DNA from: Catajapyx aquilonaris
Lineage: Eukaryota
DNA length: 64,000 bases
Reading direction: 5' to 3'
Assembly (NCBI GenBank): GCA_000934665.2
Contig: KZ537994.1
Span: 62,001 to 126,000 of the forward strand
The translations under genes were made by a program, and so were the position numbers. Positions 262 through 64,000 of this stretch are shown here, piece by piece (the stretch's first letter is position 1; each line of letters opens with the position of its first letter). The notes under the pieces are model-generated. The model was not told the DNA's origin. It saw only the letters and a list, made by a program, of their open reading frames with translations, and did not search any database.

Positions 262-1336
262 ATGGCTTTGCAGCTGTTTGAGCAGAAGGATGTGGTGAAG
301 ATATGTGCGCCAATGGTGAGGTATTCCAGGTAAGTCCACATGCAACGACCCAGCAGTTAGCGTACAATATTTTTGACCGTTTGTTCTTCGTAGGCTTCCT
401 TTTCGTCTACTAGTCCGCAAGTACGGCTGCGACTTGGCATACACACCGATGATTATGGCTGATTCGTTTGTGAAGTCCAAGCAGGCCAGGGATGAGTTCA
501 CGACCGTCCCGTCTGATCGCCCGCTCGTGGTCCAGTTTGCGGCTAATAATGCGCATGATATTGCTCTTGCGTCTGAACTGGTTGCGGGTCATTGTGATGG
601 AGTGGGCATCAATTGCGGCTGCCCACAGCGATGGGCCCTACAGGAAGGGGTTGGCTGCTACCTCATGCGGCACCCAGAATTGATTCAAGACATGATCCGC
701 CAGACACACTCGAGGGTGCCGGTCCAAGACTTTACCATTTCAGTGAAGGTTTGTTCATACTGCATCGTACGTGTGTCAATCCCTGGAGAATTTACTTTAT
801 TGTTTCTATGCCAGATACGGCTACATTCAGATCTGCGGCAGACTGTTGAGCTGTGCCGACGAGCCGAGTCGGCTGGTGCATCATACCTATCAGTGCATGC
901 CCGTCGTGTGGACCAACGTCGGGAACCAGCTGATATGTCTGCACTGTCGGTGCTGACCAGCAGTGTGAACATTCCTGTGGTGGCCAATGGGGATGTACGC
1001 AGCTTGTCTCATGCCAGGGAAGTTACTGCTGAGACTGGAGCCAAAGGAGTGATGGTTGCTCGTGCTCTGTTACGAAACCCAGCCTTGTTTGAAGGATGGG
1101 AGTACACTCCTACATGCTGTGTGAAAGACTGGGTCAAAATTTCAGCCCAGACAGGAACCCTCTTCCCCTGCTTTCACCACCACCTCATCTACATGTGTCA
1201 GGACAGTATCTCTCGAGCTGAGAGGAGATACTTTAATGTCCTCTCTAGCACTAGTGCCGTCATGGACTATCTGAACCAACACTATTTTATGGAGGACAAT
1301 GCCAACTCTCTCTCACCAGATGATGTGAACAGCTAG
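262..1336 (+). CDS. DUS4L: tRNA-dihydrouridine(20a/20b) synthase, DUS4-like (3 exons, 314 aa)
   Basis: Exons 262-329, 394-748, 815-1336 join in phase via GT-AG introns. Motifs ICAPMVRYSRLPFRLLVRKYGCDLAYTPM, PLVVQFAAN, INCGCPQRW (catalytic Cys), PVVANGD, GVMVARALLRNP and C-terminal CFHHHLIYM match the Dus4 family. Possible 5'UTR acceptor at 220-221; AATAAA at 1465-1470. Confidence 0.93.
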
Positions 1337-8600: not shown

Positions 8601-11600
8601 AAGCACCTTTATATGAAAACATGCTCTGATGCATGTCATTTTGCCATGTCTTAAGTTTGTAGTGTGAAACTTGAACATGTACACAGCATCCAATACTCTC
8701 ATTGTAGTTTATAATCCAATATTTTCCTGACTTTCCCAAAGGTTCCTTAGTATGCCTGCCTATAACTCACTACTGGCACCCAGCATCTTTACGTGCAATA
8801 ATGAGAACCCTCGGCCAAGACCACTTCTCAAAGTGTTACACAATTTCATCAACATTGTCATCAACACCACAATACAATACTTTTCCAGCAGAAACTTATC
8901 AAGACATTTACAATGTATAAACCTAACACTTGGAGATTACCATTAAATGCTGGCCAAAACCCTCCAAGTGAGCTCCTCACAATGAAACTAGACTGAATGT
9001 CGCACAAGTGCAAGTGAAATGTCACCATAGGGTTACCTTATCCCACATTTGAATGAACAATGAATGCCCGCATGAAAGATTAGATAAAATCACGGTAGGC
9101 TATAATCACATTTGCTCATGCAATGTTGCTTTTTGAATTAAGAGTGCTGCAGAAATATGAACATTTTCTAACCTGTGATGGCATCGCATTCATAGTTGGG
9201 TTGAGATGCAGAATGCTCATATCAGGTGAAGATGTGCTTTCCCTAGAGGAAGGTGGCAGCACGGAGACGAGGCTCTGGTTTTGGGCCATGGCCAGTAAGG
9301 GCACCAGTCCTCCACTTGGGGACTGGCCCAGCACCGGCAGCAGCCTTCCTCCTGGCCCCATTGAAGAGTGTGTATGGCCGCCAGGAAAAGTATAGTATGG
9401 GGTGTTGCCCAGCATCTGTGCGCCATGGAAGGTGGGTGGTGCAGAGGAGACACTTGAAACAGTGTTGGTGGATGATGACGATGGCGAGTCGGGGAGTGGC
9501 AGGGTGCAGGGTGGAAAGGCTGTTGGAGCTGGAAAGTCTGGGATAAATGGGGTGGGAGTGGGAGGCGTGAGAGCAGGAGTTGCAGTTGGAGTTGTCGGAC
9601 TGAGTGCAGGTGCATCCTTTTCAAGAAGTTTCTCAAACACCTCATCTTTGTGTGTCACTATGCAGAAACGACCTTTGCGCATTGGGGATGTCTCTGGCAA
9701 TGATTCTGAAATTGCAAAGAACATAGAATCATCGTAATTGTGGGCCACAACACATTCACGTCAAAAGAAATTAAAACCCTACAGAAATTAAAATGATTTA
9801 GCAACACACTCACCAGTCTCTGCCTTTGCCGCTTCATCAACAGCTGTAACCTGAAACCTGGACACCTTCTGGACAAGGCCGAGGCCATCAGAAGTGATGA
9901 TTGCCGCATCACTTAGTGACCTTGCTCTTACATAGCTTTGGTTGCTGAAGTGGCCAGAGCCTGTTGGAGATGGTGCGGTGGGAGAGGGTATTCCAGGAGA
10001 CGGGATTCCCACTACAGGCATTACAGGGGTCTCAGCACCAAGTTGTGGCACTTGCATCCCTGTTAAAATGGGGGCTGGGGCTACTGCGGCCACATTCTGG
10101 AAAGGGTCAGTTGCTAGCGTTGCTCCACCAGGGACGCCCTGGGGAATCACCTGGGTACTCATCAGTGGGATGGGATGGGCTAAAACTTGTTGGGGGTGGC
10201 CCTGCATGGGCGGTAAGTGGGCAGTTATGAGAGGAGTGTGCAGATCACGGCCACGATACCCAGAGTGGATCTTGGCCAGTTCCTGATCAATAAAAAGTGT
10301 AACATATATATTCAGTCATAAAATTCCTCTGTGAATAAAAGTCAAGCCCCAGAGGAATACCACACTCTGAGAACAACAACTATAAAATTCTCACCTGCTC
10401 CAAATCATGCAGGTCAATAGCATGTGGTCTGGGCCTGGCTGTGCGAGTAACATCCTCCTTAACTTGGACTTGAGACATGCTAGCAGCCGCTGAGCATGGA
10501 GCAGATGCAGAGGCAATCACAGTAGTTGCAGTGCTTGAAGCAGAAACCTGTATATGACCTTGCTGCTCCTGCAGCCCAGTCTGTTGTTGCTGTTGATGCT
10601 GCTGTTGTGCTTGCATCTGTTGTTGCTGTTGATGCTGTTGATGCTGCTGTTGTGCCTGCACCTGTTGTTGCTGTTGTGCCTGCTGTTGTGCCTGCATCTG
10701 TTGTTGCTGTTGTGCCTGCTGCACTGGCATCTGTTGCTGCTGTTGTGCCTGCTGCACTGGCATTTGTTGTTGCTGTTGTCCCTGCTGCACTGGCATCTGT
10801 TGCTGTTGCTGTGCCTGCTGCACTGGTATCTGTTGTTGCTGCTGTTGATGCTGCTGTTGTGCTTGCATCTGTTGCTGTTGCTGTGCCTGCTGCACTGGTA
10901 TCTGTTGTTGCTGCTGTTGATGCTGCTGTTGTGCTTGCATCTGTTGCTGCTGTTGATGCTGTTGATGCTGCTGTTGTGCCTGCACCTGTTGTTGCTGTTG
11001 ATGCTGCTGTTGTGCTTGCATCTGTTGTTGCTGTTGATGCTGCTGTTGTGCTTGCATCTGTTGTTGCTGTTGATGCTGCTGTTGTGCTTGCATCTGTTGT
11101 TGCTGTTGATGCTGCTGTTGTGCTTGCATCTGTTGTTGCTGTTGATGCTGCTGTTGTGCTTGCATCTGTTGTTGCTGTTGATGCTGCTGTTGTGCTTGCA
11201 TCTGTTGTTGCTGTTGATGCTGCTGTTGTGCTTGCATCTGTTGTTGCTGTTGATGCTGCTGTTGTGCTTGCATCTGTTGTTGCTGTTGATGCTGCTGTTG
11301 TGCTTGCATCTGTTGTTGCTGTTGATGCTGCTGTTGTGCTTGCATCTGCTGTTGTTGCTGTTGTGTTTGCATCTGTTGTTGCTGCTGTGCCTGCTGCTGC
11401 ACTGGCATCTGTTGTTGCTGTTGTACCTGCTGCTGCACTGGCATATGCTGTTGCTGCTGCTGCTGCGCTTGCATTTGTTGTTGCTGTTGTGCCTGCTGCT
11501 GCACTTGGATCTGCTGTTGCTGTTGTGTTTGCTGCTGCATTTGCATTTGTTGTGCCAGTTGTTGTGTTTGAATCTGCTGCTGCTGAACTTGTGCAAGTTG

Positions 11601-14600
11601 ATGTTGTGCCTGTTGCTGTACTTGCTGCTGATGCTGCATTTGTGCATGCTGTGCCTGTAACTGTTGTTGTTGCTCCTGCTGCTGCTGTACTTGGGTGTGT
11701 TGCTGCTGTTGTGTTTGTTGCACCTGATGTGGCTGAGGCTGTTGCTGTAGTTGACATTGTGGCTGTGCCTGAGCCTGTTGCTGCAATTGTGGTGGTTGCT
11801 GTGTCTGAGGATGCTGTGGTGCTTGTGGTGGGTGTTGTGCTTGAGGCTGTTGCTGCACCTGTGGAGGCTGTTGCACTTGAGGCTGCTGTTGTACGTTTGG
11901 AACAACTGATGGTACGATCTGATGCTGCATTTGCTGTGGCTGTTGCTGTAGTTGTTGTGGTGGTGGTGGGAATTGTTGCTGTTGCTCTGGGATGGCATCA
12001 GTGGTGGCATCGATGTTCTGCAAGCATTCTGCTCCTACCTGTACACCCGAAGTAAAATTCTTAAGACAGATGGCCATACAACAACAGATACTTATAGCAG
12101 TGTAATTAGCGCAGTTATTAACCCATCAAGTGATGCAGATACTCTGTAGAAAGGATTTTAAATGATGGAACTTCTAATGCAGTGTTTCTCAGACAATTTT
12201 TGAGTACCACCTAAGTACACTGGGATAAAAGGTCCCACTGCCCTCTCAGTCACCTATCCCATAGGAACCTTTGTCAATGAACAATCCATTTTCCAGCAGT
12301 TGCAGCCCTCTTGGAGGGCCTTCTTGGCAAATTGTACTTTCAGAACCAATTCTCTAATAACTTGCAATATGTGAATCTATGAATATTTGGTCTACATTTA
12401 AGTTTTAACCAGTTTTAACTTTAATTTAAGTTCAATTGCATCATGGTACAAAACATCCTTTAATCCAGTTACAATGTCATTATGCAAAATATTCACTTAA
12501 ATTCATCATACCAGGCATAAAACAATTTCTCTCCATTCTACATCTACCTTCCCTGATTGGAACTTGCCTGTGTGGGGCCTGGCACAGGGACTGCCGCTCC
12601 TTTTTGTTGCAGTGACTGCATGTACTGATCATATGTTTGGGTGGCTTGTGGAGTGGCTGGGTGACTTCCCGACCCACCACTCTCCACTGTTACATCAGAA
12701 TGTTGAAATGTCAGCTGAAAAAGCTTCTGCTGCAGGTCTGCAATTGTATGGGGATGGCTGAAAATGAAAGAGAGAGTAGTCAATCTCAGGGAAGGAGAAA
12801 TGCAACCATGAAGGTAAAAACAAAACCACTTAAGACTGAGTGATGCATAATAAATGCCCAGACAATGCTAGGAATGACAAAGTATGGTAACATGTAGTGT
12901 AATACCATCTAGCATCTTCAACAGTACCTGTTGTCTCCTGTGCTATCAAATGAACTCTGCTGTGAAAGCCTGCTATGACTCTCTGCCGGCATGATGGTGC
13001 TGTCAGGTGTATTCTGCTGCGGGGTAGCGTAAGGGGTGCCTTGCTGGGGAGTTAAGTGCTGTGGAGTCGCATAGTGTGGAGTGGTTGATCCTTCACACTC
13101 TACCCTGTCTTCTGCAACACTGCCATTTGAAGTCGACGGGCAGATTGTCACATTTGTTTCGCTCTCCTGTCACAGAGATAATACCACAGTTACTTCACAG
13201 TGAACATTTTTCAACAAATATGACATCACATCACCTGCTTCATACTGTCTGTACTGTATCTGATAAGAAATTCTTCTTGCTTTTATAAGATAGTCACATT
13301 ATGAACAGAGGTCAATGTCCATAAAGATGTGCAACAAGGTCTAAATGTATGACTAGTCTGCGGTCACAATATTTACTCTGACATACTGCATTTTATAACC
13401 ATGTGGTTCATGTTGCAGAATGACGTAGTAGGAAAACTGGCAGCTTTGAAGACCCTAATTTGAATCCCAGCCCGTATGAAAAGGGATTTCTCATTTTGAG
13501 GAATTTTATAAAGTTCTCTTCATGATCGGTTGGGTTTTCTCTGGGTTCTCCCTCCAGTGCTGCTTCCATCCACAATTAAGTGATAATTTATACAGGGTGA
13601 AGGGAAACTCGCGGACAATCGCCAGGTAGACTGCTAGTACTCATATAACTAATATAGGGATGTGCAATTAGTTTTGGACGCAGTTGCATATTTAATGTCT
13701 ATGGCGCCGTCAACGTTTCGTGACGTCACATCTGTTCCCCCAGCTTAACAGAAGAAAAAGCCAGCTCGAGGGCCTCCGAACATTCCAGCCTTGAGTACGT
13801 AACAGATTGTCCATGTGCAGTAGGTGATCAAATCCTGTCATAGAACGAATCAGGGTGCAATACACGTGCATTTTGTCATTTTTACCTAATGTTTTACCAT
13901 CCAGCCCTCTACACGTTAAAGGCAGGTGCTGCACACATTAACTACGTAACTACACCCAAAACTAATTGCACATCCCTATATTTGTTTTGTGAGTACTATC
14001 AGGCTACCTGGCGATTGTCAGCGAGTTTCCCTTCACCCTGTATACTTGAGTGATCAAACCCAAATCCTGCATGCCAAAGGTGTCATTATTAAAGCCAGAA
14101 TTTTTAGGCAAATGCCTATTTAGTTCCTTTACAGTTGGGATGTTTTGTGAAGAGATCTATCCGTTTCATAAGTGCAGGATGTGGAAAATGTTAAGTTTTA
14201 TAGTGCCTAAAATTGCCTATTTCGTGGTTTTGGGAACAATTTGGCCTATTCAGGCTTTTTGCCCCTTTTCATGCCTATTTGGCCTTGTTTGGAATAGTTT
14301 TTGAACTTTTGGAAACAATTTCGGGACTTTCTGGGCCTATTCCAGACCATCAGAGGCATGTTTGTTTTTTTTGGAGTATTGTTTGTGTTCCTGGAAGGAC
14401 CACAACTGTTCAGAAGTAATACAAATCATGTTGCCATGACACATATGAGCCGGAAGGCAGTTCCAATCAGAGGAAAATATAGAAAAATATTTGGCAACAT
14501 ACTGCTGTGCAAGTGGAAACAGGCTGTAATGGTAGAGCAAGTGATATTTGTCTTCTGACCAAGTTTTGTGATTTTCTTCAGATTATTATCATTGTTATTC

Positions 14601-29600: not shown

Positions 29601-32600
29601 CCTGGAAGGATCTAAAGATATAGCAATCATTCTGACCCAATGAATATAAATGCATCATATTGGAATTTCAATCTCACATACAGCTTTCAGTTTATAAAGT
29701 ACAATAGTGAACAATGTCTGGCAATATGTTTTGAATTGCCTTTGTCTATGAAGTGAAATCATGCTTACCATTTCTGCAGCAATCTTATCAGCATTGTCAT
29801 TCTGCATGTCAAATTCAAACTGAATGGCTTCATTCTCTTTGTACTTGGTGCTTCGCTTCTTTGGATCAACCACTCTCAGTCGGAACTCCACCTTTTCAGA
29901 CACTGAAACAACTGCCTCATCTCGTGACACCATCTCCAGTTTTAAACCAATGTCTTCCCCAAAAAATTCATGGTTCAGCAGCTCTCTCACACTTGGTCTT
30001 CATATGAAACAGTAAAAGATGTGTCAATCTTTTAGCTCTGATTTTCACTCCATCCCCACTCACCTCTCCTCCTTGATTAGCCTAGTGCACTTGTCAATGA
30101 TTTCCTTCAATTCTGGAGCATCTACCTTGTCGTAGCTCATGGGACGCACACCCTAAACAGAAATAAATAAGCATTTCAATAACCTTTTCCTAAAGGAGCC
30201 CCAGAAAATTATATCAGATTGCCTTCATGTTTGTGTAAACTTGTGAAGAATTATATGAGTAACAAATAAAAGAGTTAAAAAGTAACCACTTCTACAAATT
30301 GCACTACATTGCCATCCATGACATTGGCATTTAAGAATACACATTTACAATAAGAATGCCTCAGAACAATGGAGACCTCAAAATTGCCACCCCATTTTGT
30401 AATACCAGAGACAGTCTGTAACAAAAAATGCCTATGGTGCCAGAAGCACATAACAAAATCTGTCATTCTACCAGCGGATCATAAACAGATGAATTTCCAT
30501 TCAAGTTAAGCACTCCACAATCACAAATCATTACTGTCATAGGAAATCAGTGTGCTTGCAACTTTTTCTTGAAATAAATTGTAAATGCTAATACAGTGGA
30601 GCATCGATTATCCGAATACCGATCAACCGAAGCATCGGTTAACTGAAAGCATTGGAGTAGGCAAATTCAAATTTGCGAGCGAGATTGAGCGGGGGGAAAA
30701 AATCGAGACTCAGCTCTGAAACAAAAGAAAATACATGTGTTGGACTTTTTTTTCCTAAACCGTAGGTCTACTTTAGTGTATGTAGTGTACTGTATACTAC
30801 TTTATGTAAGGTATATGTAATTTCAAGACGGGACTGTGATACAAAATATACAGTTTTGTGTTTAATATCACTGTTTCTTTGTTTCATATTGCTCCTATGA
30901 CATCGGTACAATTTTTTTTCTGTAAATGATAGGTTATCCGAAAAATTAGTTATCTGAACACCCCCAGTCCCCCCATTGTTTCGGATAATCAATGCTCCAC
31001 TGTACTTCCATTTCACTTCAACTGGCATGCATTCCAATTGACTGGAACAATAGGAGGCATAGGCTTGGCTCTATTGCCAAGATGGGTTGCCTGTGACTTG
31101 AGATTGTGATTTTAAAATAGCATCTTTTCCATGCTCACAAGCAACACGCTTTTGTGTCTGTCACTCTCCAGACATTTCACACAAGAAATGCCACTGCCCA
31201 TGTCATATTGATGACGTATGCAATTTCCCTTGTAACTCCCTTTCAAAGCAGCAATGGTATGTTACTCACACTGACAACTTTCTTATATATCTGAGCAGGT
31301 CCAGAGCACTCAGCATATGGATACTCAGAAGTAACCATCTCCAGCATACACATCCCAAAAGCATATACGTCCACACTCTCATCATAATGTTCTTCGTACA
31401 TCTCAGGTGCCATAAATTCAGGTGTTCCTGAAAACAGACTGTGAGTGACTGAAAAAAACACATTTAAAGCAATGGTTGCATACCTATTATTGACTTAGCA
31501 AAGGATCGATTCTTCAGGGTTGCAAGGCCAAGGTCACCTATCTTCACACTTCCAGTTGTCCCTGTTATGAAAATGTTGTCACATTTCAAGTCACGATGGA
31601 TGATTGGTGGAGTGCGTGAATGCAGAAAGTACAGTCCTTTCAGAATCTGCCTGCACCAAGATTTGAACACTTTCATGTTCACTTTCTTGAAACGGCGAAG
31701 GTAGCTGCAATCATGATAATAAATTTCAGTTTCACTCCTTCCAATGTATCAAATGCTCATTCAACAGGAAATCCACATATGTCACCACTTACGTTTTAAG
31801 AGTGCCTGAAGTCATCAGTTCAGTCACAAGTACAATGTACTTTCGTTTTGACTGACTCACTTCCCAGTAGTCATAAAATCTGACAATGTTTGGATGTTGC
31901 AAGCCTTTTAGCATCTCAGCCTCTTCTCTAAACCTCTGCCTCTCATTCTTGTTCAGTTTCTTTTCCTGTTCATGGTAGAGAGACCACATCAGCAGGTATT
32001 CCTTTTTTTCCTACTCTTTTATTTGGAGGGAGAGGGGAGAGAAGTAAGTTATGTCTACTCTTCCATCCTGAAATATTTTAAAAATTTCTTTACAGTTCAC
32101 AAGATATTGTAAAAATCATGTTGAATGATTGTGTGAACTTCAGGAGTTCAATAATGCTACGCATCTCTGTAAGCTAGGCAAATCCCTTTCATTCTCTTCC
32201 CAGATATTGCAAGACAGTTGGACATACAACTAAAACTCAGGAAACTAAACAAGAAAACTGTTATCATCTGAAGTCTACTGCCGAAAGGCAGACAGAGTCA
32301 GATTCAATTCAGAGAGAGCTCCACTTACCCCAAAATTCTTCTTCAATGGTGGAAAATTGATTTGCTTATCATTTATTACCATATTTACCGAATCTAATAA
32401 GTCATGACCCTAGTTTTAAGTTTAGTCAAATTTTAGAAAAAATCTTGGGCTTTGTACCTCAATCTAAGTTGCATCCTATTTTTTCCGGGAATGTTAAGGC
32501 AAAAAGTGCCTCTTAAATTGAAGTAAATAGGGTATGTACTGATTAAAATCAGGGAATAAGACATTTTATCAAGAACCACTTCTGCAAGGGGTAGATGTAA

Positions 32601-50931: not shown

Positions 50932-53900
50932 TTACAACTTTGCCTGACTCTTCTTCAGAAGTTTGTCCAGCTTCATTGCCCTCATCATGTCCCCCTTGAT
51001 CTTCATCTTCCCAGACATGAACGATGCCGTTGATGTCTGCTTGCCTACGATACAAAAAATAGTAATGTAACACAGGAACAATATGCAGTAGTAATACACT
51101 ACTTATTACATGTTTCATAATCAATCATAATGCATTCATCCTTCAAATAGTAACGTCATCACAACAGGCAATAATGACTGTCAATGACAATATCAACCAT
51201 GCAACTAACAATTGAAGATGGGTGATTTTACTTCCTTTGGTATTTTAAAAAAACCTTCTGCACTCTACCTGTTAAAATCTTCAGAAATTCATCTCCATCA
51301 GTTTTAATGACCACGTCAGGTTTTTCACCAGCCTCACCCTCGATGACAGCACCAGAACCATTTTTCAGGTCTACTATCCACTTACCACCCTTGGAACCTG
51401 TCAAGAGGGCAGGAAAATAGTGTCGGTCACACTCTTCAGGAATCATGATCATAAAAATTGCTAGTATCATATTGTGGACATGCAAGTTATACATACCTTC
51501 AATATCAAAAAGAAATACTGTTTTTGTGCTAGACACCAGTTCAGGGTTGATCATGGCCTTCATCTTGGCCATGTAATCTTGAATTGGATTTCCTCCTGTT
51601 GCTCCAGAGGCCGTTGCAGCTTGCCTTTCAAGTGTGTTCCTCATCAGTTCTTCCTTCTTCTGCTGATCAATATCCATATCATCCAAGAAGAAATCAGGTG
51701 TCAACTCAGCTCCTGCCAAAGAGGACACGGATTAGAAGATTGCTCTGTGAATGAAACGTTTAATGCGTACCTGGTGATACTGCATATTGTTCCATGTCAG
51801 TGATGCCTTGTTCCCTCAAAATAACATCATCAATGACGAAGTTTCCAGTGAACTCAGTGGATTTCTTTGTCAGCACTGCATAAGCTGCATCAGCCATGAT
51901 TTCAGATTTTCTGCAGTTGGAGAGAACTGCCGCACCTCCAAGCATTTCCATGGCAGCAGTAGATATAGCTGGAATAAAAAGTTTCTTGATAGGACTACAA
52001 GCCACTAGACTTACTGCTATCATTTCTCACTGGTTTTATAGTGTACATATTGGGTGGAAATTTCGGCTCACTGAAAGTCACTGCTATCCTATCAGTACCA
52101 TTGCCAAGACTGGTACTGGTAAGTTAGCAGTGACTATCAGTGAGATGAAAATTCCACCCTTTATTTTAAATTGTATCAATTTAGGCTGTCTCTGCTTGAT
52201 AATTATTAGTTTTCACTACATTTTCTTACAGATTTCGATATATTCTTTAGCACATTGGTTTACACTGTACATCTCAGGTTCATTTACCTTGAGAATGCAC
52301 TGAAAATGATAAGGTATCAGTATCAGAAAGCTGACACCACAGAATCTTAACTTGTGTATTCAGAATAAAGCCTGAGCTCTTTGAGGTGAGACTCCTACAT
52401 AGTATTTTAATTGCTTGGATTTAGTGTTTAATTATTATTTGAACATTAATGTTTGAAAGTGACATGATAACATTCATACATATGCAAGAATTACATATGG
52501 CACTACACTAATGAGACTGATTTAAAATGGGATTGGCTAATTTTAAAGACTCGTCATACTTTCAATAATATCCACCTGTCACAAGGCTCTTTCAGTGGAT
52601 ATTACTGAATGAAACCATTACAGAAATAAGCCCACAAGACTTCTTCCTGGTCTTGTAACATTTAACTGCAGATTGTCAATAAATTTTTCCAACCAGATGC
52701 ATGACCCTTGGCGTCTATATCTTGAAACTGGCAAATAACAGGTGGCATGATATAGGTTACTGGCTGATACTTTACGTTAGACTGCATAAGGTATCGACAT
52801 TCTTCAACTGCCAAAAGGGGAAAAATCAGTATACCTGTCCTAGGCCAGAGAGCATTGACTGCAACTCCTTCGTCCTTCAACTCAGCAGACATTCCCAGAA
52901 CACACATGGACATCCCATATTTAGCCATGGTGTAGGCCACATGGTTCTTAAACCAGAATGGATTCATGTTGAGAGGTGGGCTGATGTTGAGAATGTGAGG
53001 ATTTTTTGACTTGACCAAGTAAGGGATGCATGCTTTGGACCTGAAATGAAATGTGATATACAAATTATCAGTAAAATAACCTGCACAAAAAATCACAAGA
53101 AGGAGGGACTTACACAAGGAAAGTGCCTCGGGTGTTGATGCTGTGCATGAGGTCATAACGCTTCATGTCAGTCATGGTAGTACCAGTAAGAGAAATAGCA
53201 CTGGCATTGTTCACAAGTATGTCAATGTTGCCAAATTTATTGACAGCATTCTCCACAGCTGCGTTGACCTGCTTCTCATCTCGAACATCAACAACACATG
53301 GGAGGGCTTTTCCACCAGCATCTTCAACTGCAAAAGAACAAAAGTAGACACACCTTTATGGATGATTTTAAATACTACAAATTCCCTTTATTTACAATAT
53401 ACTGGACAATCCAAATGAAAGCAGAAAATATTTAATATTCTGACACGTGTGATGGACTCAAATTGGGCCAATTATCATGCTGTTGTTTTAAGTTTACCTT
53501 TTAAAGCAAGTAGTGATTTTACTTACATTTACTATGAGAACCACCAGTTCAGCAAATGCCAGTAAAGTCACTTTAACTAAAGCCTATCTGCAGTGAGGGG
53601 AGAGAAACAGCATTTGCAAAATATACCTTAAGGAGGAAAAAGTACGTTCAAGGCTAACTTTTTACAGACTTTCTACTTAACATGCAAATTTAAAAATCAA
53701 ATTTCAATAACTTAAATTATCCCCTTTTGTACAACCACCTGCAAAGATTCTTCAACAGAGCAGAAAAACGATGGATGTATGTCATCTTAACATATCACGA
53801 CTAATGTTATGCAGTCTAAGACTTCTAGCTCAGTGATCATTCTAATGAAACAACACAGTGTAAGAAATTTATGTGTTTAAATTTGAAATGTCACATTATG

Positions 53901-54820
53901 CACTACACGACATATTAACCTAAACCTACTTTATTGGGAAACAACATTGTCCAGTGGAAACAACTGACACCAAACAGATGCAGGGTTATGCACATGCCAG
54001 AGAACAGACCTCTCTTGTTTAAGAAAAAATGGTCTGGTCTATTATGATAAGCTTATGACTCTCTTAGTGACTTTCTAGGAAAATTCACCCCACCTACGTC
54101 AGCAAAATTGACACTGACTGCAGTTCTGAGCATTAATCCTTCAATGTATGCACACCTCAGCCATTGGTTATGTAACGAGTTTGTGTTTTTCACAAACTAC
54201 GAAATGTGAAAAGATTCATTGCCTGAGTTGCATAATACTCGTACTAAACCTCTGATAACATCAGTGATGCTCGAATACTTCAATATCATCAGTAAGGTAT
54301 AATCTGCCACCTGATTACATAGCATGCTATTGAAACCATATAAAGCCAACACTTTTAATTTCAGCGAGGCAAAGAAGGCTGCAATGCACACGTCTTGTTT
54401 TAATTGATGCGCAGTTGTAATTCCAGATCAGTACTGTGTAAATTATAATCTCAAAACACTGAATTAAGAGATGCTTAAGTTAAGCTAAGAAATCTCTAAC
54501 ATAGTGAACGACTCACTTTCCTTGGCCGCAGTGAAAATTGTCCCAGGCAGTTTAGGATGTGGCTCAGCAGTCTTGGCCGCAATAACAATGTTGGCTCCAT
54601 CCTTGGCAGCCTTCAGAGCTATAGCCTTTCCAATCCCACGACTAGCTCCAGTGATAAACAGGGTCTGACCGGCCAACTTCCTGTGAATCCAAACGACAAC
54701 TCTTTTACTATTTTCCTACATTAATGCCACTTGCATTACAGTACTCCCCTGGTGTACAAAGGTTTAGTGGCCAGCTGCAAAAGTAATGTCAAGTCATTCT
54801 TACCCAGTGTTCTGCAGCAT
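50932..54820 (-). CDS. HSDL2: Hydroxysteroid dehydrogenase-like protein 2 (SDR + SCP2 domains, 8 exons, 418 aa, PTS1)
   Basis: Exons 54820-54804, 54680-54517, 53327-53114, 53040-52835, 51968-51771, 51712-51497, 51397-51269, 51044-50932, all GT-AG and in phase. MLQNTGKLAGQTLFITGASRGIGKAIALKAAKDGANI (TGxxxGxG), NNASAI, YTMAK (YxxxK), SCP2 domain (W.VDLKNGSG..FMSGKMKIKGD), C-terminal AKL. Confidence 0.96.
52052..52159. mobile_element. Short palindromic MITE (same family as 40333-40430), in an HSDL2 intron
   Basis: gggtggaaatttcggctcactgaaagtcactgcta ... tagcagtgactatcagtgagatgaaaattccaccc. Confidence 0.7.
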
Positions 54821-55557
54821 GATGGCTTGTTCTTAGTGCAACTACGGCTGTGTGTCCAACGACCTCTGATCCTACGTGGGCAGGCGACACGGCTACTTAT
54901 ATCAGTCGAACAGTTCTATCAGGATGACCCCCCTCCTTATCTTCTTCTCCCGGCGGGTTGTTTTCTTCCCGTTGGCAGGCCGGGTTCAGAAGGGAAGGTT
55001 GTACCCGCGGACCCCTGACTCACACGCTCCAGTTGCATCACTACGAAACGAACGATGCACCAATCGGAAGACAACATTCCACAAAAAAATATCCACTGAC
55101 ACATGCGCATTGACATGCAACTTGGTTGTGTAAACCGGCCCTGTGTGGCATTGAAGTCACGTAGCTGCGATAATTCGCAGGTTGGACTTAGTAGCCGTTC
55201 CTAGTCAAAAGCGACTACTTTTCAGTGTGTGTGTGTGTTGTTCAATATTTTATGATAATAATAATGATGGTCCTGTTGACCCCATAGCATAACTTGGCCC
55301 TGGGTGGGCATGATCTTGAGAGTGGTTGTGAGATAAGGATAATCAGTGCGTCTTGTAATCTGCTGGTAGAAATAATCGCACTGCATGCATTATTATTATT
55401 AGACAGGTGCCAACATTATTTTTGTATTAAAATTTTTATCTCCTGGGCCATGCTACTGGCAGATTGATGCATATTGCACAAGGTCAAAATCACGCTAGAA
55501 ATGCGCTACAATTTTTCAAATGCTCTGTAAACCTCTGTCTGTAAAAATTGTGTATTA

Positions 55558-55707
55558 AGGCCATTTCACAAAAAAAATGTCGCGCGGCAAACGGCGCGAC
55601 TTGCGGCAAATTTTTATTTATATTTATTGTTGCCAATTGTTGGCAACAATAAAATTTGCCGCAAGTCGCGCCGTTTGCCGCGCGACATTTTTTTTGTGAA
55701 ATGGCCT
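55558..55707. mobile_element. PIF/Harbinger (Tourist-like) MITE, almost fully palindromic
   Basis: About 55-bp arms aggccatttcacaaaaaaaatgtcgcgcggcaaacggcgcgacttgcggcaaattt and its reverse complement; TTA TSD at 55555-55557 and 55708-55710. Confidence 0.85.
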
Positions 55708-55924
55708 TTATAGGCCTACCAATTATTTTACTGGTATCCCATTTTCTGCTTCAAGCCCTACTATTGTTGCCATATGTCAAAAATGATAGCAACGGTGTTT
55801 GTTGACATTGTTATGCTCAAGGGAAATGAATTTACTGATTGAAGAGGCTATTTTTACTGAGAGCCCATGAAAAAGAGGCAAATACCATCCTTCTTGGTCC
55901 CCAAATCACCCGAGAGCAGGAGAC

Positions 55925-58900
55925 ATGGAAGTAAGTTATTATTACCAAATCAATCTCCATTTCGGATTATACAATACAGTCTCTTCAGGCTCCGGGCAGG
56001 ACTCCGCGCCTGAAGGAGAGCTTACTGGACAGGTTCGGCATGATAATGTGCAAGAACCTGATCCACAGGAAGCGCTATTGGCCCCTCACACTTCTGGAGA
56101 TATTTGGTCCCATCCTAATGGCCTTATTCATCATGTATTTGGGATGTAAAACTCCTCTCTACAAGACAGAAACCCTCGACGATAAGTTGTTTTCCCCATC
56201 CCAAAACCTGTACCAACGCTGGAGTCCTGATGACGATACATTGCCGTCGCTTCTATGGGCACAATCTTCAATAGATGAGTCGGTTCCTCCAGTTGTAAAT
56301 GTTTCCGGGGGATTCAAGGTTATGTACTATCCCAACAGCACATTTGCATATGATATGTTGAAACCGCTGAAAGACAAGTTCCCCAAGGAAGTCGGTAAGA
56401 AAGTAGAATTGTAACACAAAAGCTTTTGTCCATGTGTGACCTGACTATTATGGTTGCAGAACTGATTGGCCTGCAATCTGAGAGGTGTGTTTATGAAAAG
56501 ATCGCTCAGAACTATTTTATAAAGGGTGACCAAAATCTCAAAGGAGCAGTGTTGTTTGATGTGGAGGAGGGGTGGAACGAAACGGAACTGCCTGCAAAAC
56601 TATCATACACACTGAGGTTTCCCATACACATGGTTGATACGCGAAGATTGCACCTTCCGTGGTACATCTCAGCGGAAAGTGTTGCTAAGTCAGGTAACTT
56701 GTAGTTTTAATGATTCCTCAGACTTTAAAATAAGAAGGGTTCTTTATATAGCATTATATGAAATAGAAGCCCAGAACTGAAAACTGTCCAAATTTGTTAA
56801 GAAGCAACGTGGTGAGATTGATTAACACACTTACTTTTCAGAACAGCGTTACATAGAGTCAGGAATGCTTCTGGTTCAGACGACCCTTAATGAGGCATTT
56901 ATTAGAGCACATAGGCGTCAGCCTTCTGGGAAGGGAACCCCTGAAACCAATGATTCCGCCATAAAAAGCACCGTAGTTCTTCAGGTAGGCAGGGTGAATG
57001 GCGACATATTGCACTGACACTTTTTCAATATCACTGCATAAATTTTTTTTACAAATCCCACTCTTGCATTTTATTACCCAGGCTGACACAAGGAGGATCC
57101 CCTTTCCAAGCATGAATATTCGACTTAAGTCGAACGAAGATCTCACCCATGCGACATACTTCGAATCGCACTTTCCGTACAGCCTGCTACTCCACTGGCC
57201 TATTCTGGCTTATGGAATAGCATATGAGAAGGAAAGAGGGATCGAGGTTCGTCACGAATAATGCTTTTGCCCCTTTTTAGAAAATTAACCACACTTATTT
57301 CGTTCACAGGTGATGTTAAGGTTCCTGAAGGTGGGACACTTCATGCGGATCTTCTCCTGGATGCTCAACTCTTTGATGACATTGGTTCCTGCCATTATGG
57401 TATCATCAGTGTTTCTCACCACGAATCTTAAGACGGACACTAGCTTTGATTTCGTGTCGGTGACGCTGCTGGGTATCACCCTGCTTCTGTATTCTACAGC
57501 CAGCATTTGCCTTACTCTTGTCATTAGTTCTGGTAGTGCAGGTGGTTAGTAACATGCCTGAGTATATACAGTCAAATTTTTTAATAGTGAACGAAAGTGA
57601 ACAGAAAATTTGTGTAATATTTCCAGCCTTCACGTCTGCTATAGCAGTAGTTTCTGTGTGGTTGGGAGCCATAGTGTTTTCGTCGTTCTATGTCGGTCCA
57701 TACTACTTCTGGATTCCATATCCGTGGAAAATTGTGTACGCTTCGCTGCATCCCAACGTCGCACTCTTCGTGGCTCTCAGGACAATTTTCCTCTACTACA
57801 TCAATGGCATGTATAGTAGGCTACTTCGCGTCTCTTTGATCCCGAAATGTGTCTCTCGACACTTCATCTTGAAAACACATTGTTTTTCCCATTGCAGGAG
57901 ACAACTTGGACTGGAAAAACGTCGCCCAGGAAGCAGAGATAGTCATTGACGACTTCGTAATCAAGCCTGACGACATCAACATGATGACAGTGCTGATCAT
58001 CCTTGGTGTCCAGTCGGGCGTGTACTTGATCCTGCTGGTCCTCACCCTTTGGTTAGGTGCCACGCCCTTTGGGCTGGTCGGACGATTACTGAACTGGATG
58101 GCAAGTATCAGCTTCTTTCCTCTTTTTTTTTGAAGAATTTTGGTGGAATTTCTGTTACGTTTCTACATTCCCGGTGACAGTGGGTGTGTGGAGGGAGGTC
58201 AGACCAAGCACTGAAGGAGTCACTGAAGTCAGAGGCGAGTGAAGGGGATGACGAGATGGTGCCCCCTATTTTGGGTTGGGGTCCAGCAATGGAGCCCACC
58301 CCGGAGAACATGAGGCCTGCGGTGGCTGTGGAGGACCTGAAGGCGTACTCCAAAAAGGGCAGCAATGAAGGTCCTCTTTCCATCAAGCACATTAACTTAG
58401 TGGCGATGGAAGGCCAACTCACCTTCCTTCTGGGACGCAAGCACGGGGAGAACAGCCTGTGCCTGAAAGTCTTGGCAGGTGAGATGCTGTTGTGCGATGG
58501 TCAAACTATTAATATTTGTCTGAAATTTTATTTTATTTTATTTTCCTTTTTGCAGGCTTGCACGAGCCAGTGTCGGGCAAGGTGCTGATAGCTAAAGGTA
58601 CCGACGGGTCGCTGAATCCTATCGTCAACTACGTCTCAGGATCGAGGTGTTTCTTTGGATCGCTCACAGTTCGAGAGAATCTCATGTTCTTTGCAGTGGT
58701 GAGTCACGCATGAATTTGGAACTTCATTTGGAGCTTTTCAAAAATCGCATTGCACTTGCAATGTGGAAAAATTGCACGTTTAATGGGCAGAACTTGTTCG
58801 CAGATGAGAGGCCTGCCGCTGAAGTCGTTAACAATGACAGTGCAAGACATGGAGGAGAAATTCTCTCTGCTGCACCTGAGCAATGTGCTGGCCTCGAACC

Positions 58901-61900
58901 TTCCAGATATTATGCAGTGCAGGCTCAGCATTTGCATAGGCCTGATGGGCAAGCCAAAGGTACAGTGCATAATTCTTCAGACCCAAAGTGGCTTCCAAAG
59001 GGCCATATACCGAATTGTGCCGACTTATAACACGATTTAATTTCAGATACTCTTACTAGATGAGCCCACAGCCGACCTCAGTCCATCAATTCGGAGCATC
59101 GTCTGGGAATGCCTCCAGGTAATGCATCTCTTATACCAGAACTTTTCTGCGCGGTTTTTCACATCGCCGTGAATTAAAGCAAAACTCTCTTGCAATGCAC
59201 TCAGACTGCTCCCTCCGGAATGGCTGTGATTGTGAGCACCAGCAGCATGGATGAAGCTTTGACAAACGCAGACAGAGTAGCGCTGATCGCCAGGGGACGC
59301 ATGCGCTGCTGTGGTTCACCTCGATTTGTCACCACGCACTTGGGTAAATATTGAAACTTAAGGCTAGACACCATAGGCATGCCAAGGTCATCTGTCGCAG
59401 TCGCAGCATTTTGCAAAAACATATTTCGTTTGGTTCGCTCTCTAAGGCGATGGCATTGATTATGATGGGCCTTATGTTAAGAAACATGTATGTTAAGAAA
59501 GTACTTTTTTCGATATTTGCAATATGCATGTGCTTGATACTTTGGCACGAAAGAAAGTCTCCTTTCACCTGCAATCATGCAGCAGGTGCAATGGACTGTA
59601 GGCTACACCAAACATCATGTCAGCACAGCTCACCACCACTTTTCATCCTGTAAGTTGGGCCGCCCGGCTAACGAATTTGCAGGTTGGGTTGCCCCGAACA
59701 GTCAGGATAACTACCTGCTTGTACTGTACAGTACAGTCAATAATGTAAATACGTACTGCCATACTGTCCTGTACCGTACAATAGTTCAGATTACATTTCA
59801 GACTGACGGCCTTCGAGTTAGGTTTGGTCTGTTGAACATCACGTTTACTTCGTCGTCGTTCCCTCCATCCACCATTCTTTTCAACATAGCACAGCATCAT
59901 AATAATTATGATTCGTCAGGGCTATACTTTTGATAAAACCCTGATTGTTCATGCAGTTCATGATTGATAGTGCAAAACAGAAATATACTTCCAGGATTTG
60001 TCCGTTGCTCCTGTTACAGACCAATACATGCAATCTCCCCCCCTTTTTTAAAAAAATGCCCCCATATCTGCATGATTTCAAAATGGTAATTGCCAGGAGC
60101 TGGATACATGCTGCGGGTGGGCAAAGGCGCCTCGTGCCAGGTGAAAGTGGTGGCCCAGGTGGTGAAGGGCTACATCCCTGACAGCCGCCGGGAGGAGAAG
60201 ATCGAGGTGGAGGCGAACCACGAGCTGGCCTTCTTCCTGCCCAACGAGGAGAGGCTGCACATCTCCCCTCTCATCGACGCCCTGTATGCGCAATCAGAAG
60301 CCCTGGGCGTCTCCTACGTGCGGGTGCAGTACGTTCATTTGAAGGACTTGTACCACCGGTCAGTACAAATAATAATTAAGAAGCACAGGACGGGTAAGCC
60401 ATGGGATTCCATTCACATCTTTCAGGTACGAAGGTGCCGATGTGCCGCCTCCAGATTCTCCATTCTCCTCCTCGAGGGCAGAGGATCTTGATGAAGCTGA
60501 GACAGCGACCTCCTTGGCCGGTGCTCTCAAACTGGTCGCTAGAACGATGAACATGCAGTTCTGGGTTCTTATCCGGAAGTCCTTCTTGCACCTCATGCGC
60601 TGGAGCGGACTCATTGCGACACAGGTGGGTTATAGGCCTCATTACCAACGAATCAAAAAGGTTATCTCCGTCTGATTAATTTTCTCCTCAGTACTTGATT
60701 CTTTTCGGCTTTGCGACCATGAGCACTTTCACGACGCGTGGGGTGGAGATGATAGCCCCGCTTCTGTCGGCGCCGACCATGAACATGAGCACCACGGGGT
60801 ACGACAGACCGTGGATCGTGATGGACACTTCGGGGAATCCGAGCGATTCCTTCGGCCAATTTTACAAAGCCGAGCTGGATACGTACGCAGGGAACCGGAA
60901 GATCGAGAACAGCTACGCCAACCTGGAGACGGGCTTTAAGGAGCTGGGCAAGCATAAGCTCCAGTACGCGCAGCACTGCCTGGGAGGCGCCGACTTCAGC
61001 AAGGAGGACAACGGCGACTTCAATTACACGGTGTGGTACAACCCGTACTACCCTCACAGCGCAGCCCTGGGCATCAACTGGGTCAGCAACGCCAGGCTCA
61101 AGTACTTCACCAAATCGAGGAGTGTTTCCATCGACACCCAGATCCATCCAGTGGAGGACATCCAAACGGTGCTGGTACGTCATGTCCACACGTGCATAGT
61201 GTTGCTATACAGTAAAGTCATAGGTAGAGGGGCGGGGGAGATAGAGGGGACGGAAATGGGACATACCGACAAACTTTCCCTTTTATATACCGGTTTAAGA
61301 TCAGCGACTTCCAACTTGACACGTATACCCCTTTCGTATTTGCAGACTCACTTCATAGATGCAGTGCCGTTCAGGGACATTGACCGAAACGCCATGATGT
61401 CGTCTCTGTGGCTGGCAATAGGACTCATACAGCTGGTGTCCGGATTCGTGGCAGCTCCGGCCCAGGAGCAGCGCACCTTGTCCGCCAAGGTGCAAAAGCT
61501 GTCCGGCATTGGTCCGTGCATGTTCTGGATCACGCGCCTCTTCAGTGACTTCCTCTGGTGGATACCGGCTACGGCAGGGGTTCTCTTAATATTGATCCTA
61601 GGAGATAGCCACGACCACTTTGACGACCTCGAGTACCTTGGTGAGGATCACTCCGGACTTGCCCGTTTTATATCATATGATGATCAGAATCTCATTTTTG
61701 TCGAAATTATTCAAATCAGATGTGTATTCGTAATTATTTTCTATTCTGCAGCTGCGGCAGCCATGTTACTTCTCCTCTACGGATGTTCTGCCCTTGTATT
61801 TGGGTATTTCTTCAGCTTCTGTTGCAACACTCAGCATTTCAGCGCAAAATCGAGCGTCATGTTCCTCATCCTTTTCCACCTTTGGACAGGTAAGACTCCC

Positions 61901-64000
61901 CCCAACAATTTCCCAACTTCGCCAGGAAGAACATTTCCTACGTTCTATATAGTTTTAGCACGACTGAGCTAATTTCGGTTTACTGCAGGCGTGTTGTTTG
62001 GAGCTGGAATACACAGCACTTACTTCTCGCCCAACACGAAGATGTTGGCTGAAACCATCCTGTGGGCTATGCTGTGCATATTTCCGTCTTTGACCATGAT
62101 GCAAGGCCTGATAAACCTGTTCACGCTGAGCCTGAACAACCACCGCTGCCAGTTTATACCACATTCTTTGGTGGCCATGGCATGCTCCTTCCTGCAGAGG
62201 AGCGGAGAGGATGTGATGGGACAGACCTGTGCCGATGTGACAAAACACACCAATTTTGCTTGCTGCAGTAAGAATACCGCAAACACAGAGGTCTTCTTCA
62301 GCTTCGCCATGCCCATGGATCGACTGCACATGTGGGGCAGTAACTGCTTCTTTCCCGAACGTATAGATGATGGCAAAGTCGAGGACAAAGTTAATTGCGA
62401 ATATCACTTCCCGGCCAATGTCCCTGGAATGATGGCGATCTTCGCCATGCTTGTGTTTCAAGCTCTCTTCTACTTCCTGTGTGTATTGCTCATTGAAAAG
62501 GGGATCTTCAGGCATTTGTATAATTACGTAAGTACCCTGATTCAGTGCATGTCCAACGTCCAGGTCAGCATTAAATGTGTAAAAGGCAGACTATACACTG
62601 TCCGCATACCACCAGCAAAATGCGGATAGTCCTGTCGCGTCGTAGTGCCTTGCAAAACACACCATCCTTTTTTTTCAATCGCGTAGTCCAGCTTGCATGA
62701 ACGACTATAGGCTATGTCTAGTTACAATGCGCAATCAGAGATGTTCTTTATACAACCAGCCAGCCCTGTGAATGAGTAGCGGAAAGAAGCACTTTTCTTT
62801 CCGCTACTCGTTCATCCTGGAAGTCTGGTTACCCAGCGACCAACAGAGGCACACGGGTGGCTCTGAAGAGTTAGGATAATCGCCAGGCAATTACGCGTAC
62901 TGGTGTACTACAGTACAATGCTGTAGGCCTACAGTACAATAACCTACAGGAGAAACCAATCCTTAAATTCTCAGGTCAAAGTTCGTTTTCCTTGACGAGT
63001 TGACGCTTCGATGACGCGGATTCTTATATCTGTCTCCTGACAGATTCTCGGCAAGAAGAATACCCTGCAGCCATACCTCGGGATGTCCCTCAGCTTCGAG
63101 CCAGGTGTCCGTCAGGAGCGCGTGGCCGTGAGCGGCTTCGTGCGTCGAGGAGGCCTGCACCAGAGGGCCCTGGTCCTGTACGAGATGACCAAAGTGTACA
63201 AGAAGAAGACGGCCTGGAGGGGCAGTGGGGATTGGCGCAGCCTGGGGTACCCTCTGTACAACTTGAGTCTGAGCGTGCAGCACGGGGAGATCGTCGGGGT
63301 GGTGGGGCCAGTAGGAGCAGGAAAGACCACCCTGGTGAGGATTCTGACTGGTCAGACCACCCAAACCCACGGGGACGCCTTCCTCTTCGGCACCAGCCTG
63401 CAGTCGGATCCGAACAAGTTCCTGTCCATGGTTGGGTACAGCCCCGCGCACGAAGGGCTGGTCACAGAGATGACCGGGAGGGAGACGGTGGCCCTGATGG
63501 GCCAGCTGAGGGGCGTTTGCGGGAGGAAGCTGAAGCACGAGATTAGCAGGTGGTGCAAGGACTTTGGCATCCTGGAGAAGGAGCTGAACAGGGAGTGCAG
63601 GCTGATGGGGGTGGCGCACAGGAGGATCCTCAGCATCTTTAGCGCGGTGGTGGGACGGCCTCCTCTGGTGGTGCTCCACGAGCCCACCAAAGGTCTGGGG
63701 CCAAGGGCCAAGGCCAGACTCCTCGCGGCTCTCCTAAAGAACAAGAAGAAGTTTCGGGCCTGTCTCGTCGTTTCCAGCAGGTATGACAAATGTCCTGAAT
63801 GTTCATGTAGCACTTGCTTCAGGTAGGTCCTATTCTAAGACCATTCTTAACATGCATTGGCAAATACATTTAGATGACATTATGAGTTGTGATGGGTTAT
63901 AAACGCCTGCCAGTTATATCTTCCAATTAATAATACATATGGAATTTCATGCAGCGTGGAAGACTGCCAGAACCTGTGCCAGAGGATAGGAGTGATGATA
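55925..64000 (+). CDS. ABC transporter subfamily A (ABCA3-like full transporter), divergent, cut off by the window end
   Basis: Phase-consistent exons: 55925-55930, 55989-56394, 56460-56693, 56842-56984, 57082-57246, 57310-57544, 57627-57806, 57898-58100, 58181-58478, 58556-58698, 58804-58959, 59047-59118, 59205-59343, 60097-60358, 60426-60624, 60692-61174, 61346-61640, 61752-61889, 61989-62527, 63044-63780, 63955->64000. ABCA hallmarks: MCKNLIHRKR..LLEIFGP, YIESGMLLVQTTLNEAFI, YEKERG, LTVRENL, LLLDEPT, CCGSP, GAGY.L, WYN..PHS, GPVGAGKTT, MTGRET; TMD-NBD-TMD-NBD layout. Confidence 0.88.

Follow-up and report, generated by a model that had tools for sequence, protein, structure and literature searches.

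A candidate non-hydrolysing ABCA3-type protein with both composite ATP sites off consensus in Catajapyx aquilonaris

In a 64,000-nucleotide stretch of the Catajapyx aquilonaris genome (contig KZ537994.1, positions 62,001 to 126,000 of the forward strand; hereafter the window, numbered from its first letter), a gene near the end encodes, by sequence comparison, a full-length ABCA3-type transporter-like protein whose nearest relatives lie in the ABCA subfamily rather than in other ABC subfamilies, and both composite ATP sites of this protein are non-consensus. ATP-driven cycling is what defines ABC transporters, and to our knowledge at least one ATP site still works in all members that have been studied well. 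We lean, with modest confidence, towards a maintained, lineage-specific and non-hydrolysing ABCA3-type protein that would have lost the catalytic machinery of both sites. Judged from its residues, this membrane protein probably no longer works as an ATP-driven pump.

Results

Catalytic residues are missing from both ATP sites

The two nucleotide-binding domains (NBDs) were compared with 135 NBD1 and 155 NBD2 sequences extracted from the ABCA proteins that our searches returned; the sequences were aligned with MAFFT and 13 catalytic positions were scored per NBD. No deviation from consensus is present in 122 of the 135 family NBD1s, nor in 142 of the 155 family NBD2s. In the C. aquilonaris protein, NBD1 is changed at 9 of the 13 positions (G4, G6 and K of Walker A; the Q-loop Gln; S, G and G of the signature; the D-loop Asp; the H-switch His) and NBD2 at 7 of 13 (the Q-loop Gln; S, G and G of the signature; the Walker B Asp; the D-loop Asp; the H-switch His).

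Walker A of NBD1 reads LLGRKHGENSL (58427–58459; this and all following motifs lie on the forward strand), with Asn in place of a Lys that is present in 134 of 135 family members. The Q-loop YVSGSR (58630–58647) carries Gly where the family has Gln (134 of 135), the signature LPDIM (58900–58914) carries PDI for SGG (S in 132, G in 131 and G in 133 of 135), and the H-switch STSSMDEA (59235–59258) carries Ser for a His found in 127 of 135. Walker B, LLLDEPT (59050–59070), is kept and is followed by a D-loop reading ADLS (59071–59082). In NBD2 it is Walker A that is kept, as GPVGAGKTT (63305–63331). Its Q-loop YSPAH (63437–63451) has Ala for Gln (family Gln 151 of 155) and its signature region LMGVAHRR (63602–63625) has GVA for SGG (S in 153, G in 148 and G in 155 of 155). 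Walker B, VVLHEPT (63668–63688), retains the Glu, the preceding Asp (153 of 155) being replaced by His; the D-loop reads KGLG (63689–63700), and the H-switch VSSSVEDC (63770–63967), which spans intron 20, has Ser for a His present in 154 of 155. Ten of these motif strings had been quoted in an earlier note on this DNA, and all were recovered in place. That note had named motif misalignment as a danger to its case, which the family alignments rule out; its claim that both ATP sites are degenerate was borne out, the protein standing far outside the normal family range.

Each ATP site is made up of Walker A, Walker B, Q-loop and H-switch from one NBD and of the partner NBD's signature, according to the available text of PMC7756269. 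Because of this composite make-up, the NBD1-centred site keeps Walker B alone and the NBD2-centred site keeps only its P-loop and the catalytic Glu. Several catalytic residues are gone from each site, so that neither holds the full consensus set, and with zero consensus sites left the protein departs from the pattern of one degenerate and one consensus site that typifies ABCC, TAP and ABCG5/G8.

Given what is established about the parts played by the Walker A Lys, the Q-loop Gln, the SGG of the signature, the Asp of Walker B and the H-switch His, loss of hydrolysis would be expected. Site 1 would be formed by the P-loop, Q-loop and H-switch of NBD1 and the signature of NBD2; since its P-loop Lys, Q-loop Gln and H-switch His are gone, along with the signature, even nucleotide binding should be beyond it. 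Site 2 would pair the NBD2 P-loop with the NBD1 signature. Here GxxGxGKT and the Walker B Glu are intact. His replaces the Walker B Asp that coordinates Mg, neither the Gln of the Q-loop nor the His of the H-switch is present, and the partner signature is missing; at most, ATP would stay bound as a stable ligand and would not undergo Mg-dependent hydrolysis. As neither signature remains, the NBDs would be unlikely to close in the ATP sandwich on which the transport cycle runs.

It could be argued that site 2 still hydrolyses ATP by means of unusual residues and that the protein remains ATP-driven, as one-site transporters are. In ABC proteins that have been studied, a single mutation at most of the affected positions is enough to abolish hydrolysis or lower it strongly, and site 2 combines the losses just listed with that of the D-loop Asp, while its partner signature has PDI in place of SGG. 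We consider continued ATP-driven transport improbable on these grounds, even though GPVGAGKTT and the Walker B Glu survive in NBD2, LLLDEPT survives in NBD1, and one-site transporters are common (PMC7756269, available text).

A full-length ABCA with an open reading frame

A gene model was built from the sequence, with each exon junction chosen by reading frame and splice consensus. Positions 55925–64000 of the forward strand yield 1698 amino acids from 21 coding exons and 5094 coding bases, with 0 stops. All 20 introns end in an AG acceptor, and the donor is GT in 19 and GC in one. The 21 in-frame, stop-free exons reported in the earlier note were reproduced by this separate model; the gene start, which had been placed at 58380, lies instead near 55.9 kb. 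Introns are short in the window, which is eukaryotic DNA, and the gene extends past the window end at 64000. In a local alignment, residues 20–1698 of the model are colinear with residues 6–1591 (of 1706) of the ABCA protein P0145, which has about 115 further residues past the aligned end; the model is accordingly short of about 115 amino acids within the window, which would hold the remainder of NBD2 and a C-terminal regulatory domain. The GC donor belongs to intron 8, where GCAAGT directly after 58100, joined to the acceptor at 58181, restores the frame. An alternative in-frame acceptor at 58194, 13 bases downstream, would likewise rescue the exon 8/9 frame, as read from the sequence. Pairing the acceptor at 58181 with a GT donor at 58105 was rejected, since this breaks the frame.

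ABCA full transporters have the domain order TMD1-NBD1-TMD2-NBD2 (TMD, transmembrane domain), with large extracellular loops after transmembrane helices TM1 and TM7. The same order was found in the model by colinear alignment and by its hydrophobic segments, which fall where both ABCA membrane-helix sets are expected. The N-terminal half-membrane part (55980–58100, forward strand) comprises TM1, a short first extracellular domain (ECD1, about 230 amino acids) and TM2–TM6, with hydrophobic segments at residues 38–56, 339–357, 375–393, 398–416 and 492–523. It follows the first coding exon (55925–55930), is encoded by exons 2–8 (55980–56394, 56460–56693, 56842–56984, 57082–57246, 57310–57541, 57627–57815 and 57898–58100) and contains YEKERGIE (57223–57246), which we take to be the ABCA 'EKE' hallmark stretch. 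NBD1 (58181–59343) occupies exons 9–13 (58181–58478, 58556–58698, 58804–58959, 59047–59118 and 59205–59343) and is followed by a regulatory-type domain in exon 14 (60097–60358), which aligns with the equivalent ABCA region and lies within a tblastn match to P0002 (60090–60359). TMD2 and ECD2 (60426–62527) are encoded by exons 15–19 (60426–60624, 60692–61174, 61346–61640, 61752–61889 and 61989–62527), with a TMD2 hallmark stretch at 61466–61507 and hydrophobic segments at residues 1134–1152, 1181–1199, 1211–1229, 1247–1265, 1281–1299 and 1408–1426. NBD2 (63044–64000) occupies exons 20 and 21 (63044–63780 and 63955–64000, the latter cut by the window end). All exons and domains are on the forward strand.

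Membership of the ABCA family is supported by several comparisons. The NBD2 exon matches Pfam ABC_tran (1.2e-18) and an open reading frame (ORF) covering ECD2/TMD2 (60680–61969) matches ABC2_membrane_3 (1e-08), both above cutoff; single NBD1 and TMD1 exons gave no Pfam match, being too short to score. Once spliced, NBD1 matches ABCA NBD1s along its entire length, with up to 112.7 bits, and the whole model aligns end to end with ABCAs of about 1600–1700 residues at about 22–25% identity. The top named database matches come from insects and mites and are ABCA1-like or ABCA3 proteins. Among solved structures, the 13 best sequences are all human ABCA3, ABCA1, ABCA4 or ABCA7, the first being ABCA3 (PDB 7w01, 2e-44, NBD2). 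An AlphaFold2 model of the NBD2 exon (mean pLDDT 86.9, pTM 0.82) predicts with confidence that this domain keeps the ABC fold, and Foldseek paired it with the NBD2s of ABCA3, ABCA1, ABCA4 and ABCA7 at a template-modelling score (TM-score) of 0.75–0.80 on the query. A Protein Atlas query returned generic ABC NBD clusters only.

An error in the gene model or the assembly might in principle mimic such a protein, if canonical NBD exons lay elsewhere or the sequence were mis-assembled. The model does derive from sequence alone, with an inferred GC donor and first exon. When five canonical ABCAs were searched against the 64 kb with tblastn, NBD-like matches were restricted to the model exons and a short read-through into an adjoining intron; since no such match occurs elsewhere in the window, hidden alternative exons with consensus motifs are not present. 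Moreover, the degenerate motifs sit within long exons, away from junctions. Contigs were also assembled from individual sequencing runs. Three runs (X1, X2 and X4, from one sample) cover the locus and a fourth, X5, gave no cover; the contigs from the three match 8.1 kb with 0 differences, apart from one bubble of five single-nucleotide polymorphisms in one run. One contig, 4490 bases long with 2741 of them inside the window, continues past 64000. As the sample may be the source of the assembly, the agreement of the contigs shows consistency rather than independence. We do not take the DNA of the locus for an assembly slip, and we regard an artefact of either kind as very improbable.

NBD divergence and indirect signs of selection

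The NBDs of the protein are exceptionally divergent. At 1.80 substitutions per site, their terminal branch exceeds the median of 0.40, and their median identity to other ABCAs is 0.291 compared with 0.470 among those ABCAs. Taken separately, NBD1 (0.286 versus 0.505) and NBD2 (0.316 versus 0.490) both fall under the 5th percentile of the family. The end branch measures 2.13 in the full-length tree, where the median is 0.7. The membrane parts are closer to the family norm: TMD2 identity (0.183) lies inside the family range (median 0.216, 5th percentile 0.149) and TMD1 identity (0.183; family median 0.259) lies at its edge. The regulatory-type region of exon 14 has an identity of 0.221 (family median 0.326), and the ratio of NBD to TMD identity is 1.61, compared with a family median of 2.05. 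At family-conserved positions outside the motifs, the residue is the same or similar in 36 of 51 cases in NBD1 and 31 of 37 in NBD2, so that replacements are mostly conservative.

Neutral decay was simulated by random substitution of the model coding sequence, with 200 runs at each level of substitution d. At d=0.02 a mean of 3.7 stops arose and 1% of runs stayed free of stops; at d≥0.05 none of the 200 runs did. Mean stop counts reached 29.4 at d=0.2 and 47.0 at d=0.4, a range that corresponds roughly to the substitution needed to alter a third to a half of residues. Because stops are expected under neutrality and none occurs in 1698 codons, the NBD divergence would not be expected to have built up without selection. 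The GC content at third codon positions (GC3) of the ABCA coding sequence is 0.678 (0.751 in exons 14–21), compared with an intron GC of 0.404 and with GC3 values of 0.39–0.53 in neighbouring ORFs; codon bias or local biased gene conversion could have raised it.

Taken together, the extreme divergence, open frame, usable splice sites, GC3 and domain-specific loss suggest that catalytic residues were lost while the protein stayed under selection. The earlier note had read the gene as a maintained ABCA without hydrolysis. Double-site degeneracy, its first element, is upheld by the family counts; the word "maintained" receives indirect support only, from the open frame, the splice sites, the codon composition and the concentration of loss in the NBDs, all of which would fit continued selection on the protein.

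No orthologue of the gene, with or without the degenerate state, turned up in the searched collections. The best matches of a word-indexed search with the NBD2 exon, at 34–36% identity, were all ordinary ABCAs. HMMER was also run exhaustively over 1.84 billion representatives; the 150 best matches listed had 26–36% identity and included no orthologue, and the top two were multi-NBD proteins with consensus motifs. A metagenome scan gave one locus, at 28% identity. Elsewhere in the window (377–1333, forward strand) lies an uninterrupted 319-codon ORF resembling tRNA-dihydrouridine(20a/20b) synthase (DUS-like), whose best matches are merely 48–56% identical and scattered over many bilaterian phyla. 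This low best identity indicates that close relatives of the source organism are absent from the protein collections.

The main competing account is that of a young or unexpressed pseudogene, perhaps one that died after a long and useful degenerate phase, or one disabled beyond 64000. Several observations pull in that direction and weigh against a maintained protein. Family-conserved columns are broadly lost, with 0.45 retained in NBD1 and 0.56 in NBD2 against family medians of 0.94 and 0.95, and outside the motifs the conserved positions are identical in just 27 of 51 (NBD1) and 22 of 37 (NBD2) cases; the NBDs as a whole may be drifting, with relaxation that reaches beyond the catalytic residues. 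The sole variant patch in the 8.1 kb (56454–56507), represented by an alternative 114-base contig in run X4 at a depth of 7 versus 20.8, holds five changes, one of them intronic, and three of the four exonic ones are non-synonymous (exon 3, ECD1), the other being synonymous. The absence of an orthologue from the searched collections points the same way, as does the position of the gene's 3′ end beyond the window. The first coding exon (55925–55930, 6 bases) is conjectural, the open frame depends on the single inferred GC-AG intron, and an open frame, which excludes long neutral decay, is compatible with the very recent death of an already degenerate gene.

The marks that a pseudogene would be expected to bear are nevertheless missing: 55925–64000 contains no stops, frameshifts or lost splice sites, and usable sites are present at 20 of 20 introns. 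Losing 16 of 26 near-invariant catalytic residues by neutral change would have brought with it tens of stops, as the simulations at d=0.2 and d=0.4 show. GC3 has not relaxed toward the intron GC, and divergence is within the family range in TMD2 and at its edge in TMD1. A pseudogene is in our judgement unlikely, though it carries real weight, and a protein that lost both sites while under selection remains the reading that we favour.

Surroundings of the gene

In the gap between the ABCA gene and the divergent upstream gene, an inverted repeat (55553–55712) is found some 210 bases upstream of where the ABCA gene starts; its 62-nt arms are 98% complementary and 36 nt apart, and it resembles a small foldback or MITE-type element (MITE, miniature inverted-repeat transposable element). 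Within intron 16, a short dispersed repeat (61235–61292) has a summed contig depth of 244–430, compared with about 21–34 elsewhere, and many loose contig ends on both sides. Open frames at 51231–54690 on the reverse strand, head to head with the ABCA gene, may, judged by motifs, encode an SDR plus SCP2 protein of the HSDL2 type, and a reverse-strand stretch at about 29658–31748 contains an HRDLKCDN stretch that we take to mark a putative WNK-type kinase. A long low-complexity Gln/Pro-rich open frame occupies 10383–12125 (reverse strand), where all frames are open and the AT skew of the 10–12 kb bin is extreme (-0.488). The window contains a single N, at position 20556.

Discussion

If both ATP sites are dead, as their residues suggest, the protein would be expected to fold and to insert in the membrane like an ABCA, and its remaining activity would be independent of ATP: binding of lipid or of a partner through the TMD/ECD body, or passive movement of lipid. 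The NBD2 pocket may serve as a structural or sensing nucleotide site. A role as receptor, scaffold, conduit or sensor is speculation. Tentatively, and with slightly more doubt than conviction, we propose that selection continued long after both ATP sites died and preserved the body of an ABCA (type II exporter) for a task that does not depend on ATP hydrolysis, for example as a lipid-binding receptor or scaffold whose NBD2 pocket is permanently occupied or empty. Were this so, the gene would be a natural experiment on the ABCA membrane body and the NBD-TMD interface without hydrolysis, with a bearing on the passive share of ABCA lipid handling, and ABC transporters would join the enzyme families that have conserved pseudoenzymes.

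Among characterized transporters the closest counterpart is human ABCA3 (PDB 7w01 and 7w02), which together with other ABCAs of short extracellular domains shares the domain order and similar length of the model. It is the best sequence match among solved structures, and 7w01 is also the best fold match (TM-score 0.80 on the query). The likeness ends at the catalytic residues: in NBD2 of ABCA3 the Walker A, Q-loop, signature, Walker B and H-switch are all consensus, whereas the model lacks most of these in both NBDs.

Degenerate ATP sites as such are familiar. In the ABC proteins with one degenerate site (ABCC, including CFTR and SUR; TAP1/2; ABCG5/G8), non-consensus residues are distributed over both NBDs and one site is non-hydrolysing; such a site may keep nucleotide bound as a structural ligand, and in full-length human proteins it is always NBS1, according to the available text of PMC7756269. 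These proteins differ from the model in that they keep one consensus hydrolysing site, while its two sites both deviate and one is without a P-loop. Full-text literature searches found no ABCA or other ABC transporter described with both sites degenerate; in the available text of PMC5844305 and PMC7339416 the word "degenerate" is used in an unrelated sense. The earlier note had called two degenerate sites unusual, which holds for described transporters as far as the available text of PMC7756269 goes, although such sites are not unique to this gene, since a conserved clade of tick ABCAs has them as well. ABC proteins with degenerate sites are on record already, and tick annotations contain ABCAs off consensus at both sites that have drawn no remark.

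Two members of the comparison set have at least three deviations in both NBDs, P0146 (3 and 6) and P0267 (5 and 4). P0146, from the soft tick Ornithodoros turicata, is annotated by its source as 'phospholipid-transporting ATPase ABCA3-like' and has orthologues of 48–63% identity in Haemaphysalis longicornis (P0390), Dermacentor variabilis (P0391), Rhipicephalus microplus (P0393) and Ixodes (P0394 and P0395), besides more distant tick paralogues. Wherever the region is covered, the orthologues have in common an NBD1 with the signature L[NT][AT]GQ and Asn in the H-switch, and an NBD2 with the Walker A GLQQSGRS (Lys to Arg), Glu in the Q-loop and the signature YGSG[SA]. On these alignments, there are ABCAs off consensus at both sites, and their conservation extends over soft and hard ticks alike. 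Among the paralogues, P0396–P0398 show additional losses, such as the Walker B variants ILDSPT and FFDCPT. Full-text literature searches found no description of the motifs of this clade. The label "phospholipid-transporting ATPase" that automatic annotation gives to such proteins is, on their motifs, probably wrong.

The tick proteins resemble the model in being full ABCAs whose two composite sites both contain non-consensus motifs, and P0146 shares with the model the Asp-to-His change in Walker B of NBD2. Arg at position 2 of Walker A together with Asn in the E-H-L stretch is a combination of the model and P0146 only (1 of 135 family rows). Most motif variants nonetheless differ between the two; unlike the model, the tick clade retains the P-loop and Q-loop in NBD1 and the H-switch in NBD2, and its variants are conserved across genera. 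The model does not group with the tick clade in trees, and the approximately unbiased test does not reject a tree constrained to unite the two (p 0.09). If the proposal of long-continued selection after loss of both sites holds, the C. aquilonaris gene and the tick clade would together indicate that arthropod-like lineages repeatedly converted ABCA pumps into non-pumps; if the gene were distantly co-orthologous to the tick proteins, an ancient loss that proceeded stepwise would be conceivable.

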